A DNA stretch of 11,583 bases from Candidatus Hermodarchaeota archaeon. GTDB lineage: Archaea; Asgardarchaeota; Lokiarchaeia; Sigyniarchaeales; SOKP01. The DNA lies in NCBI GenBank assembly GCA_048885925.1, contig JBHLLG010000091.1, positions 1-11,583 of the forward strand, read 5' to 3'. Under the pieces are notes generated by a model. It was given only the letters and a program-made list of their open reading frames with translations, did not search any database and was not told the origin of the DNA. Of the stretch, positions 1,626 through 7,708 are shown in pieces (within the stretch, counting starts at the first letter, position 1; every line of letters starts with the position of its first letter). The translations under genes were made by a program, and so were the position numbers.

Positions 1626-3179
1626 TTACAGATTTTTGATGGTACTGAACATAACTTTTAATTGTTCATATAATTCTAATCGAAATTCAGAACTTATTTT
1701 AAATATAAAATAGGAAATTTGTCTCTCTTCCAATTTCGTATAAAAATCAAAAGCTCCCATCATTTTTGACCAGTTTATCTTTTCCTTAGTTATTATACCA
1801 ATTAATATCACGCTATTATCTTTAAGATTTTCAATAATTTTTAAAATAATATTATTCCAATCAGGGTCAATAGAATCCCTATTTTTAGCATCGAATATGA
1901 GAAAAACTCCATCAGATTCAGAAACTTTCATAGAGTTGAAGTTATAATTTTCCAAGATTAACCCATTTGAAAATTTGTATATCTCTTTATCTTTTTTATC
2001 CTTTTTAGAAAATGGCCCCAACTCTTTTATTTCTTTTAAAAGTATTAAACAAGGATTATTAACAAGATCCTTTGATATAAATGCTACCGAAAGGTTATTT
2101 TTAGTTTTGAGGATTGAACTAATCTCTGTTAAAATCATACTTTTTAAGTTTTTTTCATCATACTCTTTACTTAACATGATATAATGATAAGCTACAATCC
2201 CAAAAGCTTCTTCAATATTTTCTCCCGTTAGTGCACTCGTTTCAATATATGAAATTTTTTTTTTATGTTGTTCAGATAACATTTCTGCTAATGTAACAGC
2301 TTCTTCATAATCAATTTCTCTTTCTTGCTCCAGATCTCGTTTATTTCCAACAATAACCACTGATATCTCATGTTCTTTAAATTCATTCAATTCATTAAAC
2401 CAACTTACTACATTATAATAGGACTCTTTATTTGTTAAATCAAAAACAATAAAAGCCGCTTGTGCTCCTTTATAATATACTTTTCGATATCTTTTAAAAT
2501 ATTGTTGAGCACCTATATCCCAGAGAAAAAGACTAATTTCATTCCCAAAAAATTCAAAATTACGTGTCATCACATTTAATCCTATAGTAGTACGATAATC
2601 TGCTAAGAATCTCCCTTCTACAAATCTACGTAAGATTGAGGTTTTACCAACTGTATGGTCACCGATAATGATAAATTTAAATCTATAGGTTCCTCCAGAT
2701 TCTAATCCAATTTGAAAAAATTGGCTGGTGTTATAATATCCCTCTGTTTTATACTCGAAATTAGGAATAGACAATTCAATTAAATCACTTTCGGCTGTAA
2801 ACAGAATTTGAGCTACTTTTTCAGCAAGAAAATATGCATATGGTGCAATTTTATCAATAGAAGCCAGATTTTCAATAACAACACTTAAGGTTATATTCTC
2901 AGTAATAGAAATAAATAGAATACGATTTTCTTCTGTATCAAAATTTGCCGTTCCAAATTTTCTATATGAAAATTCATTACGAAATCTTTCTATAACAGGA
3001 TTGACAACTGCAGTCATAATTGAGAATAATTCCAAATCTATATCTTTTCTTCTTTCCCCTGCAATTATTAATCCATCTTGGTCAGAAACTATTATAGCTT
3101 CAACTTCCTTATTAACTTTTAAGAAATTCTTGAATAATTCATTGAATAGTATATTTTTACTTGTTGACAAAGGATACAT
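1626..3179 (-). CDS. Roadblock/LAMTOR2 domain + Ras/Rab-like small GTPase + degenerate GTPase-like C-terminal domain
   Basis: N-terminal roadblock pattern (VEAIIVSDQDGLIIAG...). G1 GDHTVGKT (2640-2663), G2 YRTTIG, G3 WDIGAQ (2505-2522), G4 NKRD, G5 ETSAL. The C-terminal part repeats GTPase-like strands (GVFLIFDAKNRDS, VILIGI) without a P-loop. Confidence 0.9.
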   Translation of the reverse strand: MYPLSTSKNILFNELFKNFLKVNKEVEAIIVSDQDGLIIAGERRKDIDLELFSIMTAVVNPVIERFRNEFSYRKFGTANFDTEENRILFISITENITLSVVIENLASIDKIAPYAYFLAEKVAQILFTAESDLIELSIPNFEYKTEGYYNTSQFFQIGLESGGTYRFKFIIIGDHTVGKTSILRRFVEGRFLADYRTTIGLNVMTRNFEFFGNEISLFLWDIGAQQYFKRYRKVYYKGAQAAFIVFDLTNKESYYNVVSWFNELNEFKEHEISVVIVGNKRDLEQEREIDYEEAVTLAEMLSEQHKKKISYIETSALTGENIEEAFGIVAYHYIMLSKEYDEKNLKSMILTEISSILKTKNNLSVAFISKDLVNNPCLILLKEIKELGPFSKKDKKDKEIYKFSNGLILENYNFNSMKVSESDGVFLIFDAKNRDSIDPDWNNIILKIIENLKDNSVILIGIITKEKINWSKMMGAFDFYTKLEERQISYFIFKISSEFRLELYEQLKVMFSTIKNL

Positions 3180-3469
3180 CTCAAAAATGAAGGATTAGTG
3201 ATAACAAACCAATTTATTTTTAGACTTAATTGATATTTTGATATTATTATAACCTAATAATTATATAAATTTGATTACCTGTGTGATTTAAAAATTTTAG
3301 AATTTTGAGGAAATTCTACACTCTTTATTCAACTTATTATTCGCATTTGTATAAACATAAGATCAATAGCCATTTTTCGAAGACTGTGGCGTTTGTAAAG
3401 GAAAATTGAAGGTAGTATAAGAAGTAAATAAAAGGGTAATATTAATGAGCTTAAAATATTAGCAATAAT

Positions 3470-3484
3470 AAAAAAAAAAAAAAA
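3470..3484 (-). terminator. T15 tract on the minus strand, probable terminator of the 3562-4083 transcript
   Basis: A15 run on the + strand, about 80 nt downstream of the minus-strand stop at 3562. Confidence 0.4.
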
Positions 3485-3523
3485 TTTAGTATTTTTAAAA
3501 TATCAAATTAGTGTTTTGATGTT

Positions 3524-3553
3524 TTACTTTCTTCCAGTGTTAAATTTCGTCAT
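3524..3553 (-). other. 9-codon mini-ORF (MTKFNTGRK*) with a strong SD overlapping the upstream stop; gene remnant or micropeptide
   Basis: The minus strand reads TAG GAGGTTTA ATG ACG AAA TTT AAC ACT GGA AGA AAG TAA; GGAGGT directly precedes the ATG. Confidence 0.3.
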
Positions 3554-3561
3554 TAAACCTC

Positions 3562-4083
3562 CTAATAATGTATTAATTTTATTATATCTATACCTTTAAA
3601 TTCATTACCTTCAATCATTTCTCCAGTAATGATAATATTGCAAAATTCTTGGGGTTCAAGTGCATTTTTAACTAAATTTCTATTAAATTTGACCATTAAA
3701 TCCGGAATATTATCATTATTGATATCAATAATCTCGGTCTTGGTTGACGCAGGTACATCACCATTCAAAAAAACAGTGTTCATATTTACGTTATTAACAT
3801 CATAATCATCAGGTAATGAAATATAAACGGTAACCCAGTTCCCTTTACTTTTAAAATTTAATACCTCAGGATGAAAATCAATAGTTGCTATTATTGGATC
3901 TTTAGGTTTTTTTTTAGTTGCGGCGGTATCAATTACTTCTTCATTTAGGAGTAAATCGTCATTACCCTCACTTTCGATAATGCTATCTTCTGTATTTGGT
4001 GTTTCTATAAGGAAAGCACCTAAAGATACTGGAAACCCTATCCCCAAACCTAAAATAATTAACCCCGTTATTAATTTTTTCAT
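3562..4083 (-). CDS. Secreted or membrane-anchored protein with one beta-rich Ig-like domain and a Ca-binding-like DxNxD loop
   Basis: Signal/anchor MKKLITGLIILGLGIGFPVSLGAFLI (ATG at 4083 preferred over GTG at 4092), acidic linker, then the domain ATIDFHPEVLNFKSKGNWVTVYI...DINNDNIPDLMVKFNR...FKGIDII. Confidence 0.8.
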   Translation of the reverse strand: MKKLITGLIILGLGIGFPVSLGAFLIETPNTEDSIIESEGNDDLLLNEEVIDTAATKKKPKDPIIATIDFHPEVLNFKSKGNWVTVYISLPDDYDVNNVNMNTVFLNGDVPASTKTEIIDINNDNIPDLMVKFNRNLVKNALEPQEFCNIIITGEMIEGNEFKGIDIIKLIHY

Positions 4084-4436
4084 AAAATTCACATTTAAGT
4101 GGAATTAATGCAAGATGAAAATAATTATTCTCATATTTAAATCTATGCTGAATTCTCAATCTATTTGTCATTTTATTCTCGGAAGTTAATGGAATTTTAG
4201 ATTTCTGAAAAATTCTTGCTAGATTTTTCCTTTTTTTCCTATGAATTGTGGAACAATATCTATCCATTCCAAAAAAATTTACTTAATTAAATAAGCCCGT
4301 ATTTAGCATAAAAGAGGTTAAATACATCATGGATTACTATTCTATGGAGTCTTAATTATTCGAATTAAAAAGAGGGGGATTAATTGAAATGGAATTAAAA
4401 GAAGATAAACAATTTTAATAATTAAAATAAAAGGGT

Positions 4437-4512
4437 CAGTTCCCTGACAACTCCTTGAAGTAGGGTTGGACAATGATTGAGGTGAGTACTTTTGGAGGGA
4501 ATCAGGGAACTG
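4437..4512 (-). ncRNA. Candidate hairpin sRNA or 3'-UTR element with an anti-Shine-Dalgarno loop
   Basis: Nested inverted repeats: CAGTTCCCTGA 4437-4447 / TCAGGGAACTG 4502-4512, CTCC 4451-4454 / GGAG 4494-4497, AAGTA 4458-4462 / TACTT 4487-4491, with a 24-nt loop. It is GC-rich relative to its flanks, and a U-rich tail follows on the minus strand. The strand is inferred. Confidence 0.55.
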
Positions 4513-4544
4513 GAATAAAAACTGAGTGATAATTTCTTTAAATA

Positions 4545-4558
4545 CCTATTTAAATAGG
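4545..4558. promoter_or_regulatory. Perfect 14-bp palindrome CCTATTTAAATAGG containing a TATA-like TTTAAATA on both strands
   Basis: Read directly; it lies between the stop of the 92-aa gene and the hairpin. Confidence 0.4.
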
Positions 4559-4566
4559 AGAAAAAT

Positions 4567-4845
4567 TTATAAATTAGCTAAATACTCATTTAACACTATG
4601 TTTAAATCAACTTCTGAGTTTTGGATCTTTTTCAAAAGATGCCTGAGTCCATAATCATTCAACAATAACTCGATGAGATTCTTATAAATTGCTGTAATGT
4701 TATCTTTTCCAGCTTCATAATAAAAATCATCATCGCGAAGGGTAAGATCCAAAATTTCATATAAACCTTTTATGGCGTCCTTTATATTCTCGAAATTCTT
4801 TTCAGCTTTTTCTTTTGATCTGATCGCATATTTTGAACTAGTCAT
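4567..4845 (-). CDS. 92-aa helical hypothetical protein
   Basis: ATG start with a strong SD (GAGGTGA, minus strand 4862-4856) and amphipathic helical composition; no family recognised. Confidence 0.8.
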   Translation of the reverse strand: MTSSKYAIRSKEKAEKNFENIKDAIKGLYEILDLTLRDDDFYYEAGKDNITAIYKNLIELLLNDYGLRHLLKKIQNSEVDLNIVLNEYLANL

Positions 4846-4855
4846 TTTAACTTAC

Positions 4856-4892
4856 TCACCTCAAATAAAATATATGATTGATCCCTTATAAA
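4856..4892 (-). promoter_or_regulatory. TATA box (TTTATAAG, 4892-4885) and SD (GAGGTGA) of the 92-aa gene
   Basis: The minus strand reads GATCAAGGTTTATAAGGGATCAATCATATATTTTATTTGAGGTGAGTAAGTTAAAATG. Confidence 0.5.
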
Positions 4893-4940
4893 CCTTGATC
4901 ATCTTGCATAATTTATCCGACCTAAAACAAACAAACGAAT

Positions 4941-5145
4941 GGTGGGATTGATCACCCTCCGGCGATATCAATCTAACAAACTAATTTAGAACAGTTATTT
5001 ATAGAATAATCATTGGTTTGCATGTTAAAATACATAAAGATGAATAACGAAAACCGATCATCAACGCCGAAATTGACCATTTTATATCGATTTTTGATCA
5101 AAACTAAAAACAGAAATTCAAATTATTCAAGGTTTCAATCCCACC
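4941..5145. repeat. 11-bp inverted repeat pair GGTGGGATTGA (4941-4951) / TCAATCCCACC (5135-5145)
   Basis: Exact reverse complements within a 341-bp intergenic region; function unknown. Confidence 0.6.
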
Positions 5146-5186
5146 TTACAGAAGGTAAAAAACTTCTAAAACAAAAAAAAGTAAAA

Positions 5187-6668
5187 TTAATGATGAATAG
5201 GACGTCCCTTTTTATGAATAGATTTTCCAACAACAGATTCACAACCTTCTAATACCATTTCTGAAATTGTAGGATGGCTGTGTATTGTTTCTGTGACATC
5301 ATGGATGGTTAAACCATGTTGCATAGCTAAAGCTATTTCAGCAATTAATTCAGGGGCTTCAGTTCCAATACAAGAAGCACCGAGAATTTTATGAGTTTCT
5401 TTATCAGCGAGAACCATGATAAAGCCTTCCTCTTCGCCCATACATTTGGCTTTACCCAGGGATTGATACGGAAATTGTCCCATTAATACATCATAACCTA
5501 AATTTTTTGCCATTTGACGACGATATCCTACAGAACCTATATTAGGTGAAGTAAATATAGTTGCTGGTACTATTGTGTAATTGGTTTTCATTTCATGTAC
5601 AGGAAATCCTCCGAGACATGAAAGTGCATTCGCTACAGCAACATCACCCTCATAACTTGCAACGTGAGCAAGCATAATTCCACCCGTCACATCGCCTATT
5701 GCATAAATTCCTTTTACTGCGGTTTCTAAAGTGTTAGGATTAACTTTAATAGCACCTCGATCAGTTTCAATTCCAAGTTGTTCAAGGCCGATATTTTTAG
5801 ATTCTTTTGCCCGACCTATAGAAACTAAACAAAGGTCAGCTTCAAACGTATATTTTTCAGCGCTATCTATTTGATCTCTAGAGACCTCTGCTGAACAAGT
5901 TATGACTCTCACACCAGTTCCCGTATTTTCTACGGATAAAACATTTTGTGAGGTAAGGATCTCTATCCCATTCTCCTCAAATTTTTTTTGAAGTACTTTA
6001 ACAATCATTGGTTCTTCAGTGGCAATTGGAGAGGATAAATATTCCAGCATGGTAACCCTACTTCCATAGGTTGCAAAAATATTAGCAAATTCACAGCCAA
6101 TTACTCCAGCTCCTATAATTAATAATCTTTCTGGAATAGACCTAAAGTTAGGATCAAGGATATCATCACTTGTTAAGATTCTTTCGTGGTCGATATTAAA
6201 TGCAGGAATCAAAGCCGGAGATGAGCCTGTAGCAATAATTACTCTTTTTGCTCTAATTGTAGTAATATCTTTGCCTTCAATTGAAATTTCAAATCCAGTA
6301 TCTAAATTTCCTCCAACAATTTTCCCGAATCCATAATAAACATCATTCTTCCATCCCTTCTCCAAGGCTTCAATTCCCTCTACTAATTCTTGAACAATCT
6401 TATTTTTTCTTTCTACTGCCTTATCAAAAGATAATTTATAATCTGAGATTTCTATCCCAAATTCATGCGCCTCTTCAATTTTTTCGATTAAATGAACAGA
6501 AGCATATAAGGCTTTTGTAGGAATACATCCCCAATTAAGGCATGTTCCTCCCAACTTTGCTTTTTCAATTAGAGCTACTTTTGCTCCATATTGAGCCGCC
6601 CTAATAGCTGCATGATAACCTCCAGGTCCCGCTCCAATAACAGCTAAATCATATAAAACATCACTCAT
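5187..6668 (-). CDS. lpdA: Dihydrolipoamide dehydrogenase (E3 / L-protein)
   Basis: FAD motif GAGPGG, redox disulfide GGTCLNWGCIPTK, NAD motif GAGVIGCE, GIYAIGD, MLAHVA and C-terminal HPTISE. Confidence 0.95.
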   Translation of the reverse strand: MSDVLYDLAVIGAGPGGYHAAIRAAQYGAKVALIEKAKLGGTCLNWGCIPTKALYASVHLIEKIEEAHEFGIEISDYKLSFDKAVERKNKIVQELVEGIEALEKGWKNDVYYGFGKIVGGNLDTGFEISIEGKDITTIRAKRVIIATGSSPALIPAFNIDHERILTSDDILDPNFRSIPERLLIIGAGVIGCEFANIFATYGSRVTMLEYLSSPIATEEPMIVKVLQKKFEENGIEILTSQNVLSVENTGTGVRVITCSAEVSRDQIDSAEKYTFEADLCLVSIGRAKESKNIGLEQLGIETDRGAIKVNPNTLETAVKGIYAIGDVTGGIMLAHVASYEGDVAVANALSCLGGFPVHEMKTNYTIVPATIFTSPNIGSVGYRRQMAKNLGYDVLMGQFPYQSLGKAKCMGEEEGFIMVLADKETHKILGASCIGTEAPELIAEIALAMQHGLTIHDVTETIHSHPTISEMVLEGCESVVGKSIHKKGRPIHH

Positions 6669-7156: not shown

Positions 7157-7708
7157 ATGTATAGCAAACAAAAAGATAATAAATCAAAGCTTGCTTTTAA
7201 ATTATGTATTTTTGGATCGGGAGGTGTGGGGAAGACAACACTGATACGAAGGTTTGTAACAAAAGTATTTGAGAAAAATATTAAAATGACAATAGGAGCA
7301 GATTTTAGTATTAAAAATGTTGAAGTTGATGGAAAAACAGTAACGCTCCGCATATGGGATTTTGCTGGTGAAGATCGTTTTCGAGTATTGTTACCTAGTT
7401 TTGCTAAAGGTGCGGATGGGGGTATTTTCATGTTCGATATAACGAGATATTCAAGTGTTAAAGATATTGGTGATTGGTTATCAATATTTAAATACATTGT
7501 ATCTGATTCAGAAGTGAAAATACCAATACTAATGGTTGGAGGAAAATCAGATTTAGCTGAAAGAAGATCAGTTGAAACTGAAGAAGCAATAGAAATAGTA
7601 CAGACTCATCATTTACAAGGCTATTTTGAATGTTCTTCTAAAACAGGAGACAATGTTGAACAAGTTTTTGAATTTATAGCAAAAAAAATGATTGATTCTA
7701 CAACATAA
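7157..7708 (+). CDS. Rab-like small GTPase (Ras superfamily)
   Basis: G1 GSGGVGKT, G2 MTIGADF, G3 WDFAGE, variant G4 GKSD, G5 ECSSK; no C-terminal prenylation cysteines. Confidence 0.93.
   Translation: MYSKQKDNKSKLAFKLCIFGSGGVGKTTLIRRFVTKVFEKNIKMTIGADFSIKNVEVDGKTVTLRIWDFAGEDRFRVLLPSFAKGADGGIFMFDITRYSSVKDIGDWLSIFKYIVSDSEVKIPILMVGGKSDLAERRSVETEEAIEIVQTHHLQGYFECSSKTGDNVEQVFEFIAKKMIDSTT

Follow-up and report, generated by a model that had tools for sequence, protein, structure and literature searches.

Type I toxin mRNAs such as hok and aapA1 are subject to fold-back inhibition and to antitoxin small RNAs (sRNAs) encoded by their neighbours, and C-rich loops act as seeds in bacterial sRNAs. In the icaR mRNA of Staphylococcus aureus, a motif in the untranslated stretch at the 3' end (3'UTR) is reported to pair with the Shine-Dalgarno (SD) region of the same mRNA (PMC3868564), and an interaction between the 5' and 3' UTRs is reported for the hbs mRNA of Bacillus subtilis (PMC5737220). 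For the archaea the comparable report concerns sRNA162 of Methanosarcina mazei, a trans-acting sRNA that masks a ribosome-binding site (RBS) (PMC3510493). The locus considered here lies in an 11,583-nucleotide stretch of DNA from Candidatus Hermodarchaeota archaeon (assembly GCA_048885925.1, contig JBHLLG010000091.1), referred to throughout as the window, in which a gene for a protein of 92 amino acids (aa) is followed on the minus strand by a hairpin whose loop is complementary to the RBS of that gene. On comparative sequence evidence, the hairpin is taken, with a probability of about 0.7, to be a conserved, clade-specific RNA element whose loop functionally pairs with the RBS of its neighbour. 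RBS and loop have changed together in evolution, which points to RNA-based control of translation.

As with icaR, an anti-SD sequence is found downstream of the coding region, it is complementary to the RBS of its own gene, and lower translation would be the expected outcome. Unlike in icaR, the seed is here placed in the loop of a conserved hairpin, and the leader is very short, with the target at its predicted 5' end; moreover, the host is an archaeon, up to six copies are present at the locus in relatives, and a single transcript carrying both sites is only presumed. A small gene accompanied by a nearby RNA element that would, by the in silico and comparative data, mask its translation start also recalls the type I toxin systems. 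The earlier note on this DNA, made from sequence alone, had drawn the same analogy, which does not extend to the protein: the 92-aa product is acidic, soluble and helical, contains no membrane segment and gives no sign of toxicity, and no antisense gene overlaps its own. With sRNA162 and the sRNAs with C-rich loops the element shares an unpaired loop seed complementary to an SD region and a U-tract after the hairpin. Unlike the trans-acting sRNAs, it has only one seed match of at least 11 nt at a gene start in the whole genome, that of the neighbouring gene, and not several targets. The earlier note did not recognise such a module as described for Asgard archaea; a literature search at the level of titles and abstracts likewise found none for this group, there is no match in Rfam, and an anti-SD RNA element that would mask the start of a neighbour's mRNA is read as new.

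Both the hairpin and the exact complementarity of its loop to the RBS, which the earlier note had reported, are borne out (Table 1). The 12-mer TTGAGGTGAGTA of the minus strand (4864-4853) stops 7 nt before the ATG (4845-4843) and forms with TACTCACCTCAA (4488-4477) a 12-nt inverted repeat of 100% complementarity, with 364 nt between the arms, whilst every other perfect inverted pair of at least 12 nt within 600 nt in the window consists of A/T runs only. The 12-mer occurs twice, both strands together, in the 3,897,362 bases of the assembly (G000; 29% G+C), at exactly the RBS and the loop; the 11-mer occurs three times, and its third occurrence, on contig C1, has no ATG in the 40 nt shown downstream. 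From base composition about 0.36 copies of the 12-mer are expected per genome, and a second copy less than 400 nt away is, by our own arithmetic, an event of about 4e-5.

The complementarity extends beyond what the ribosome would account for. No 16S gene was found in the window's genome by motif search or by family search, and the rRNA tail, GGATCACCTCC, was therefore taken from a genome of the same genus. Only the 7-nt SD core of the target fits this tail. The RBS bases that flank GAGGTGA, a U on the 5' side and GUA on the 3' side, are invariant; they misfit the 16S tail and fit the loop.

Table 1. Features of the hairpin locus, in window coordinates.
Feature	Position	Strand	Remarks
Dihydrolipoamide-dehydrogenase-like gene	5187..6668	(-)	about 320 non-coding nt follow
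TATA box TTTATAAG of the 92-aa gene	4885..4892	(-)	20 nt between TATA box and TTGAGG
Target site TTGAGGTGAGTAAG	4851..4864	(-)	holds SD core GAGGTGA (4862-4856); the 12 nt 4864-4853 pair with the loop
92-aa gene, predicted soluble helical-hairpin protein without known family	4567..4845	(-)	open reading frame (ORF) and AlphaFold model
A+T5 tract	4561..4566	(-)	directly after the stop codon
TATA-like A/T elements, palindrome CTATTTAAATAG (4557-4546) then TATTTAAAG	4536..4557	(-)	24-45 nt upstream of the hairpin
Conserved hairpin	4437..4512	(-)	outer stem 4512-4502/4447-4437, inner stems and apical loop
Loop motif TACTCACCTCAA (anti-SD seed)	4477..4488	(-)	read 4488-4477; 10/12 nt unpaired
ACCC + UUUUAUUUU tail, oligo-U terminator-like	4424..4436	(-)	after the hairpin; U tract 4432-4424

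The hairpin begins 54 nt after the stop codon (4569-4567), and the arms of its outer stem, CAGTTCCCTGA (4512-4502) and TCAGGGAACTG (4447-4437), pair as an inverted repeat. Minus-strand RNA from 4530 to 4420 is predicted to fold at -27.3 kcal/mol, compared with a shuffle mean of -14.1 (sd 2.99; z -4.41) and with none of 200 shuffles as stable, into an outer stem of 11-12 bp followed by stems of 4 bp and 5 bp. In the isolated hairpin seven seed bases have an unpaired probability of 0.99-1.0. The plus strand also folds (-30.1 kcal/mol, z -2.9), and RNAalifold on its own recovers the outer stem only. The A/T palindrome before the hairpin and the U-rich tail after it, both recorded in the earlier note, are present. 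The tail contains, at 4432-4424, the U run at the 3' end by which archaeal oligo-U terminators are recognised, and CTGACC followed by a T-rich tract is kept in nearly all hairpin copies. The hairpin is outside every Rfam family, C/D box and H/ACA RNAs and ribozymes included: the whole window gave a single unrelated match below threshold, and for the 171-nt region 4400-4570 the best matches reached 9.7-12.2 bits where the thresholds are 37-70. The loop seed (4477-4488) also seems to resemble the 5' end of U1 small nuclear RNA, and its target (4853-4864) the eukaryotic 5' splice-site consensus; this is regarded as a coincidence of SD-like sequence.

The element has a narrow distribution. A covariance model, R1, built from 21 hairpin copies, matches the window at 4424-4515 with 86.4 bits. 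The relatives of the window's genome are metagenome-assembled genomes (MAGs) labelled Promethearchaeota/Lokiarchaeia, and within the genus R1 finds the element in 23 of 53 genomes, with 1-6 matches in each, nearly always on one contig, and a single match in the genome of the window. A sample of 140 genomes from the order contains it in 19 of 45 genomes of the same genus and 3 of 39 of a second genus in the same family. Elsewhere in the sample there is one weak match (E 0.0025), and the remaining 21 genera have none. A dispersed repeat, resembling miniature inverted-repeat transposable elements (MITEs) or repetitive extragenic palindromic (REP) sequences, was rejected as a candidate: both BLAST and the covariance model find one copy in G000. 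The earlier note had named a dispersed mobile repeat as a finding that would count against it; what relatives hold instead is 1-6 local copies.

The same narrow distribution is seen when the protein is used as the guide. Through it 48 loci were fetched from species-representative genomes, and 58 metagenome loci were compared likewise. The earlier note had proposed to look for the hairpin beside homologues, and close orthologues do carry it. All 20 genome loci with a protein identity of at least 70% have the hairpin 48-74 nt after the stop codon on the strand of the gene, and the hairpin is present in 18 of 19 metagenome loci at 77% or above, the exception being L115, which stops at a contig end before the position of the hairpin. 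No hairpin was found at the 28 genome loci with an identity of 63% or less, nor at the 39 metagenome loci at 68% or less. Complementarity of at least 11 nt between leader and 3' flank is confined to the hairpin clade. The distant orthologues have other RBSs, and complementarity between their leader and 3' flank is not above that of shuffles; the two paralogues in the window's genome have no comparable 3' hairpin or anti-SD match. One of the loci, L069 (DATKTW010000087.1), is filed under a 'Candidatus Nanopelagicaceae bacterium' MAG and carries this Lokiarchaeial gene with a hairpin identical to that of L066; the contig is probably mis-binned.

Evidence for pairing comes from an alignment of 34 loci from the RBS to the end of the hairpin, in which the long-range helix was written as a pseudoknot and from which exact duplicates (L106-L108, L112, L117), the truncated L119, L124 (without the RBS) and G007 were left out. 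Its ten core pairs are standard pairs in all 340 cells. The duplex measures 10 bp in 34/34 loci and 11 bp in 31/34, with non-pairs at the helix ends only; the target 14-mer is unchanged in 31 of the 34 loci and the loop core ACTCACCTCA in 28, and every change in the latter keeps the pairing with the RBS. At pair 11/433 (window 4862/4479) 30 rows have G-C, two A-U and two G.U, and at pair 19/425 (window 4854/4487) 33 rows have U-A and one C-G. Pairs 14/430 and 15/429 show one G.U each, and the four one-sided cells in the core of the duplex are all G.U. In a tree of the intervening sequence the A-U rows, one G.U row and G-C rows form one clade and the C-G row falls in another; the G.U intermediates stand inside or beside the A-U clade. 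Since the A-U and C-G rows lie in separate clades, two independent double changes are indicated (G-C to A-U and U-A to C-G), with a wobble intermediate. A change from C to A in the loop, which adds an A-U pair, has arisen in three separate places in the tree (the clade of the window, L121 and L064). The probability that changed RBS rows would meet matching loop bases by chance is, by our arithmetic from column counts and with L066 and L069 taken as one event, about 0.003. The loop and RBS, for which the earlier note had asked about co-variation, are thus both conserved and co-varying.

The pattern of substitution also bears on the strand. Stem changes in 42 distinct copies comprise 41 G.U and 20 A.C cells when read on the strand of the gene, and the one-sided changes in stem and duplex favour an RNA made from the gene's (minus) strand. 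In genome G003, which carries the hairpin several times over, the five full copies differ elsewhere but all keep the loop 12-mer.

A mechanism may be outlined from these features. The hairpin would be a structured RNA transcribed from the minus strand, with the anti-SD seed exposed in its apical loop, and the seed would pair with the first 10-13 nt of the 92-aa mRNA, the SD included. Such a duplex would be expected to keep the small ribosomal subunit off the mRNA and so to lower translation. The start of transcription is predicted at about 4862 +/- 2 from the TATA-to-start spacing that is usual for archaea, and TTTATATA is found at the same distance in relatives. Because the target lies at this predicted 5' end, the duplex may also protect the end from decay. 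The predicted energy of the duplex between leader and hairpin is about -19.6 kcal/mol, versus -15.2 for the same leader with the 16S tail. When a 447-nt model mRNA is folded, leader and loop motif are paired in the minimum-energy structure, and the base-pair probabilities that link the two sites add up to 5.0.

The pairing could take place in cis or in trans. In the cis version a read-through 3'UTR would fold back on the start of its own mRNA, as in icaR or hok; in the trans version an sRNA of about 90 nt would be made, with its own TATA-like element and U-tract. A separate sRNA is slightly favoured over fold-back of a 3'UTR, because of T5-6 tracts after the stop codon, an A/T peak about 30 nt before the hairpin, the conserved U tract behind it and distant extra copies that keep the seed. 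T5-T6 tracts appear soon after the stop in many relatives, and the A+T5 tract in the window is a possible archaeal terminator of the 92-aa mRNA. Measured from the hairpin start, the share of 33 loci with an 8-mer made only of A and T peaks at -34/-33 (0.42/0.39) and again at -28 (0.33). In relatives, copies of the hairpin that lie kilobases away from the gene have an intact seed. The A/T elements in the window make a weak candidate for the promoter of a separate hairpin RNA and, in a genome of 29% G+C, the A/T peak and the other sequence hints of a separate RNA are likewise weak.

Several observations weigh against a functional pairing of loop and RBS. The covariation rests on two independent double changes, and a shuffle control that takes helix and hairpin stem together reaches the observed number of double-change pairs in 219 of 500 trials and the observed covariation score in 53 of 500, a lack of significance that arises because most columns never vary. 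The stems of the hairpin vary almost only one-sidedly, and 21 copies show no covariation beyond shuffles. Conservation of the seed in the extra copies could stem from recent duplication or gene conversion. Strong SD motifs stand ahead of only 154 of 1913 long ORFs in the window's genome, so SD-led initiation is a minority mode there. A transcription start at about 4862 would drop 4863-4864 from the RNA and bring the duplex down to 10 bp, and would offer no explanation for the gained A-U pairs. Finally, four public runs hold parts of the window as assembled contigs at a depth of 2-3.7, which carry no strand and whose ends at 4848, 4559 and 4418 were not used; two contigs from RNA libraries cover parts of the coding region only (4631-4848 and 4559-4790), and one contig alone (4418-4663) reaches from the gene into the hairpin, but it belongs to a run of unknown kind.

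The protein that would be controlled in this way falls into none of the families of Pfam, NCBIfam or PADLOC, nor did the ESM Atlas yield a usable match. Its 115 homologues come from Asgard MAGs and, where the source gives a name, are all 'hypothetical'; among 1.8 billion proteins the family has 74 representatives only. The AlphaFold model, with a predicted local distance difference test (pLDDT) score of 89.5, consists of helices at residues 2-36, 40-62 and 64-75, which make a long helical hairpin and a third helix. A Foldseek comparison of this model with the PDB returned nothing at an E value of 0.001 or below, and VIA-align returned generic helical hairpins only, histidine-kinase DHp domains included, at Z scores of up to 7.8, which is within the stated noise of the tool for helical models. 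The protein has a grand average of hydropathy of -0.41, a highest 19-residue hydropathy of 0.48 and an isoelectric point of 5.1. One family member of 375 aa, P0164, is fused behind two PAS domains, and weak matches to the HisK_N family are found in 5 of 16 members; together these are hints that the 92-aa protein may be a helical hairpin of a signalling type. A weak, local profile match of the family in the PDB to a single PUF RNA-binding repeat (E 0.0094) was followed up, but an identity as a PUF protein is not borne out by the AlphaFold model.

On the minus strand the dihydrolipoamide-dehydrogenase-like gene is followed by the 92-aa ORF, the hairpin, ORFs without known family and a Ras-family GTPase gene. 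The roughly 300 nt upstream of the 92-aa gene (4866-5186, minus) are conserved non-coding DNA in relatives, including those in which another gene lies next to it. The region has recurrent TGATCA palindromes; these, of which two stand on either side of the TATA box in most relatives, are likely to be binding sites for a regulator. The region also contains an 11-nt perfect inverted repeat, GGTGGGATTGA / TCAATCCCACC, at 4941-4951 and 5135-5145, with the arms 183 nt apart. Downstream of the hairpin, overlapping minus-strand ORFs at 3562-4092 and 3983-4267 (176 and 94 aa) belong to no family, apart from a weak PADLOC match of the 94-aa ORF to HamC/DUF3223 (E 0.0077), and the two may be one frameshifted gene. 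The window contains two genes for Ras-family small GTPases, at 1626-3179 (-) and 7157-7708 (+), one of them with a 165-aa N-terminal extension; genes of this family are typical of Asgard genomes. A scan of the window for tRNA and tmRNA found none.

The hairpin marks a synteny break. Downstream of it, at about 1630-4430, the window has no DNA similarity to its closest relatives (L058-L063, L106, L109), whose 92-aa proteins are 88-95% identical. Relatives have 1-6 copies of the hairpin, all at this locus; in G003 six lie within 20 kb, and loci L046 (G003:C7:74000-93999), L047 (G022:C11) and L049 (G001:C352) have between two and six, with a matching RBS at the 92-aa gene only. Between the copies lie genes for TIR, SIR2-TPR, LRR, SLOG/DprA with PRTase-like, and giant lectin-like proteins. 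The region downstream of the 92-aa gene looks, from its gene content, like a variable island of defence type bounded by hairpin copies. In G003 the start of the repeat unit falls within the final ~17 nt of the 92-aa coding sequence, and one copy is inverted. At L046:8649-11363 the unit of hairpin plus LRR gene has been duplicated in tandem, so that hairpin d and an LRR gene are followed by hairpin e, another LRR gene and hairpin a. The outermost copies are degenerate, with the 5' arm replaced or the loop mutated (L054:4642-4734, L048:3780-3870, L046:1876-1965, L047:13565-13655 and 18518-18607), and some of the outer copies are nearly the same as the first copy in their 3' half, from the loop onward, but very different in the 5' arm. 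One downstream flank is common to several degenerate outer copies of different genomes (G003, G001, G005 and G009), as though these copies marked the original end of the locus.

RNA genes serve integrating elements as attachment sites, and integrons have their attC sites. The arrays resemble such sites in that co-oriented, imperfect palindromes of about 90-170 nt separate variable genes and the outer copies are degenerate. The 11-13-bp motif could accordingly be read as the DNA core of a site-specific recombination or inversion system in which the RBS and the hairpin copies are partner sites; the hairpin region would then be an attachment point for gene gain, and the co-variation would result from exchange between partner sites and not from RNA pairing. 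The two motifs do form an inverted repeat that brackets the whole 92-aa gene, and the multiplied copies with heterogeneous genes between them, the inverted copy, the end of similarity at the hairpin, the hybrid outer copies and the start of the repeat unit within the coding region would all suit recombination. Nevertheless, all the gene-adjacent hairpin loci (20 genome loci, 18 metagenome loci and the window) share orientation and order, and an inversion switch between RBS copy and loop copy was rejected, no locus among them being in the inverted state. No recombinase domain was detected in the 29 ORFs (12 + 17) of the three arrays L046, L047 and L049, of 13-20 kb each, nor was the integrase that attC arrays would lead one to expect, and part of the G003 array is plain tandem duplication. 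A DNA core would need neither the conserved stems nor the U-tract, wherever partner motifs mismatch they do so in a way tolerated by RNA (G.U), and the most conserved part is the centre, the loop 12-mer, unlike attC sites, in which it is the ends. Both the partner-site reading and its account of gene gain and co-variation are thus considered unlikely.

A more ambitious extension of RNA-based control is held to be equally doubtful. The hairpin might be both a small-RNA gene and the anchor of a growing defence-like island; each gain or duplication of a gene would copy the RNA, so that the number of anti-SD loops (1-6) would track the size of the island and set the level of the 92-aa protein.

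It is less likely again that the hairpin is merely a structure of the 3' end, which terminates or stabilises the 92-aa mRNA or acts as an insulator ahead of the island, and whose complementarity to the RBS has no function. Its constant position behind the stop codon, the strength of the stem and the conservation of the U-tract would suit such a role, and archaeal transcripts often end at oligo-U tracts. Termination in archaea needs no hairpin, however, the loop and not the stem is the most conserved part, loop and RBS change together, and the motif is unique in the genome. The slightest chance is given to the idea that loop and RBS region are each kept for binding of a protein, be it the 92-aa protein or a promoter regulator, and that their complementarity is a by-product of a site read both ways: the promoter region rich in conserved TGATCA palindromes suggests heavy control at the protein level and the local PUF-repeat match would fit an RNA-binding product, but an RNA loop in single-stranded form is not the same ligand as its complement, the G.U states speak for pairing and not for a shared site, the model shows a plain helical hairpin for which no structural match was significant, and the Pfam PUF family is unmatched by any of 16 family members even at E values of up to 10.

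RNA-based control of translation is almost unexplored in the Asgard archaea, the closest known relatives of eukaryotes. If the loop of the hairpin does pair with the RBS, the locus is a compact case defined by sequence, with one small gene, one hairpin and a 10-13-bp duplex in which nature has already made compensatory changes, and it is amenable to in vitro work without the need to grow the organism. As a structured RNA family the hairpin is new; it occurs in two genera of a single Lokiarchaeial family, and the covariance model may be used in its annotation. Moreover, it stands where a variable island with TIR, SIR2, LRR and SLOG genes has its edge, and may help to find such islands in other genomes. 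Were the number of loops indeed to follow the growth of the island, there would be an RNA-based link in Asgard archaea between the content of the island and a conserved small regulator.

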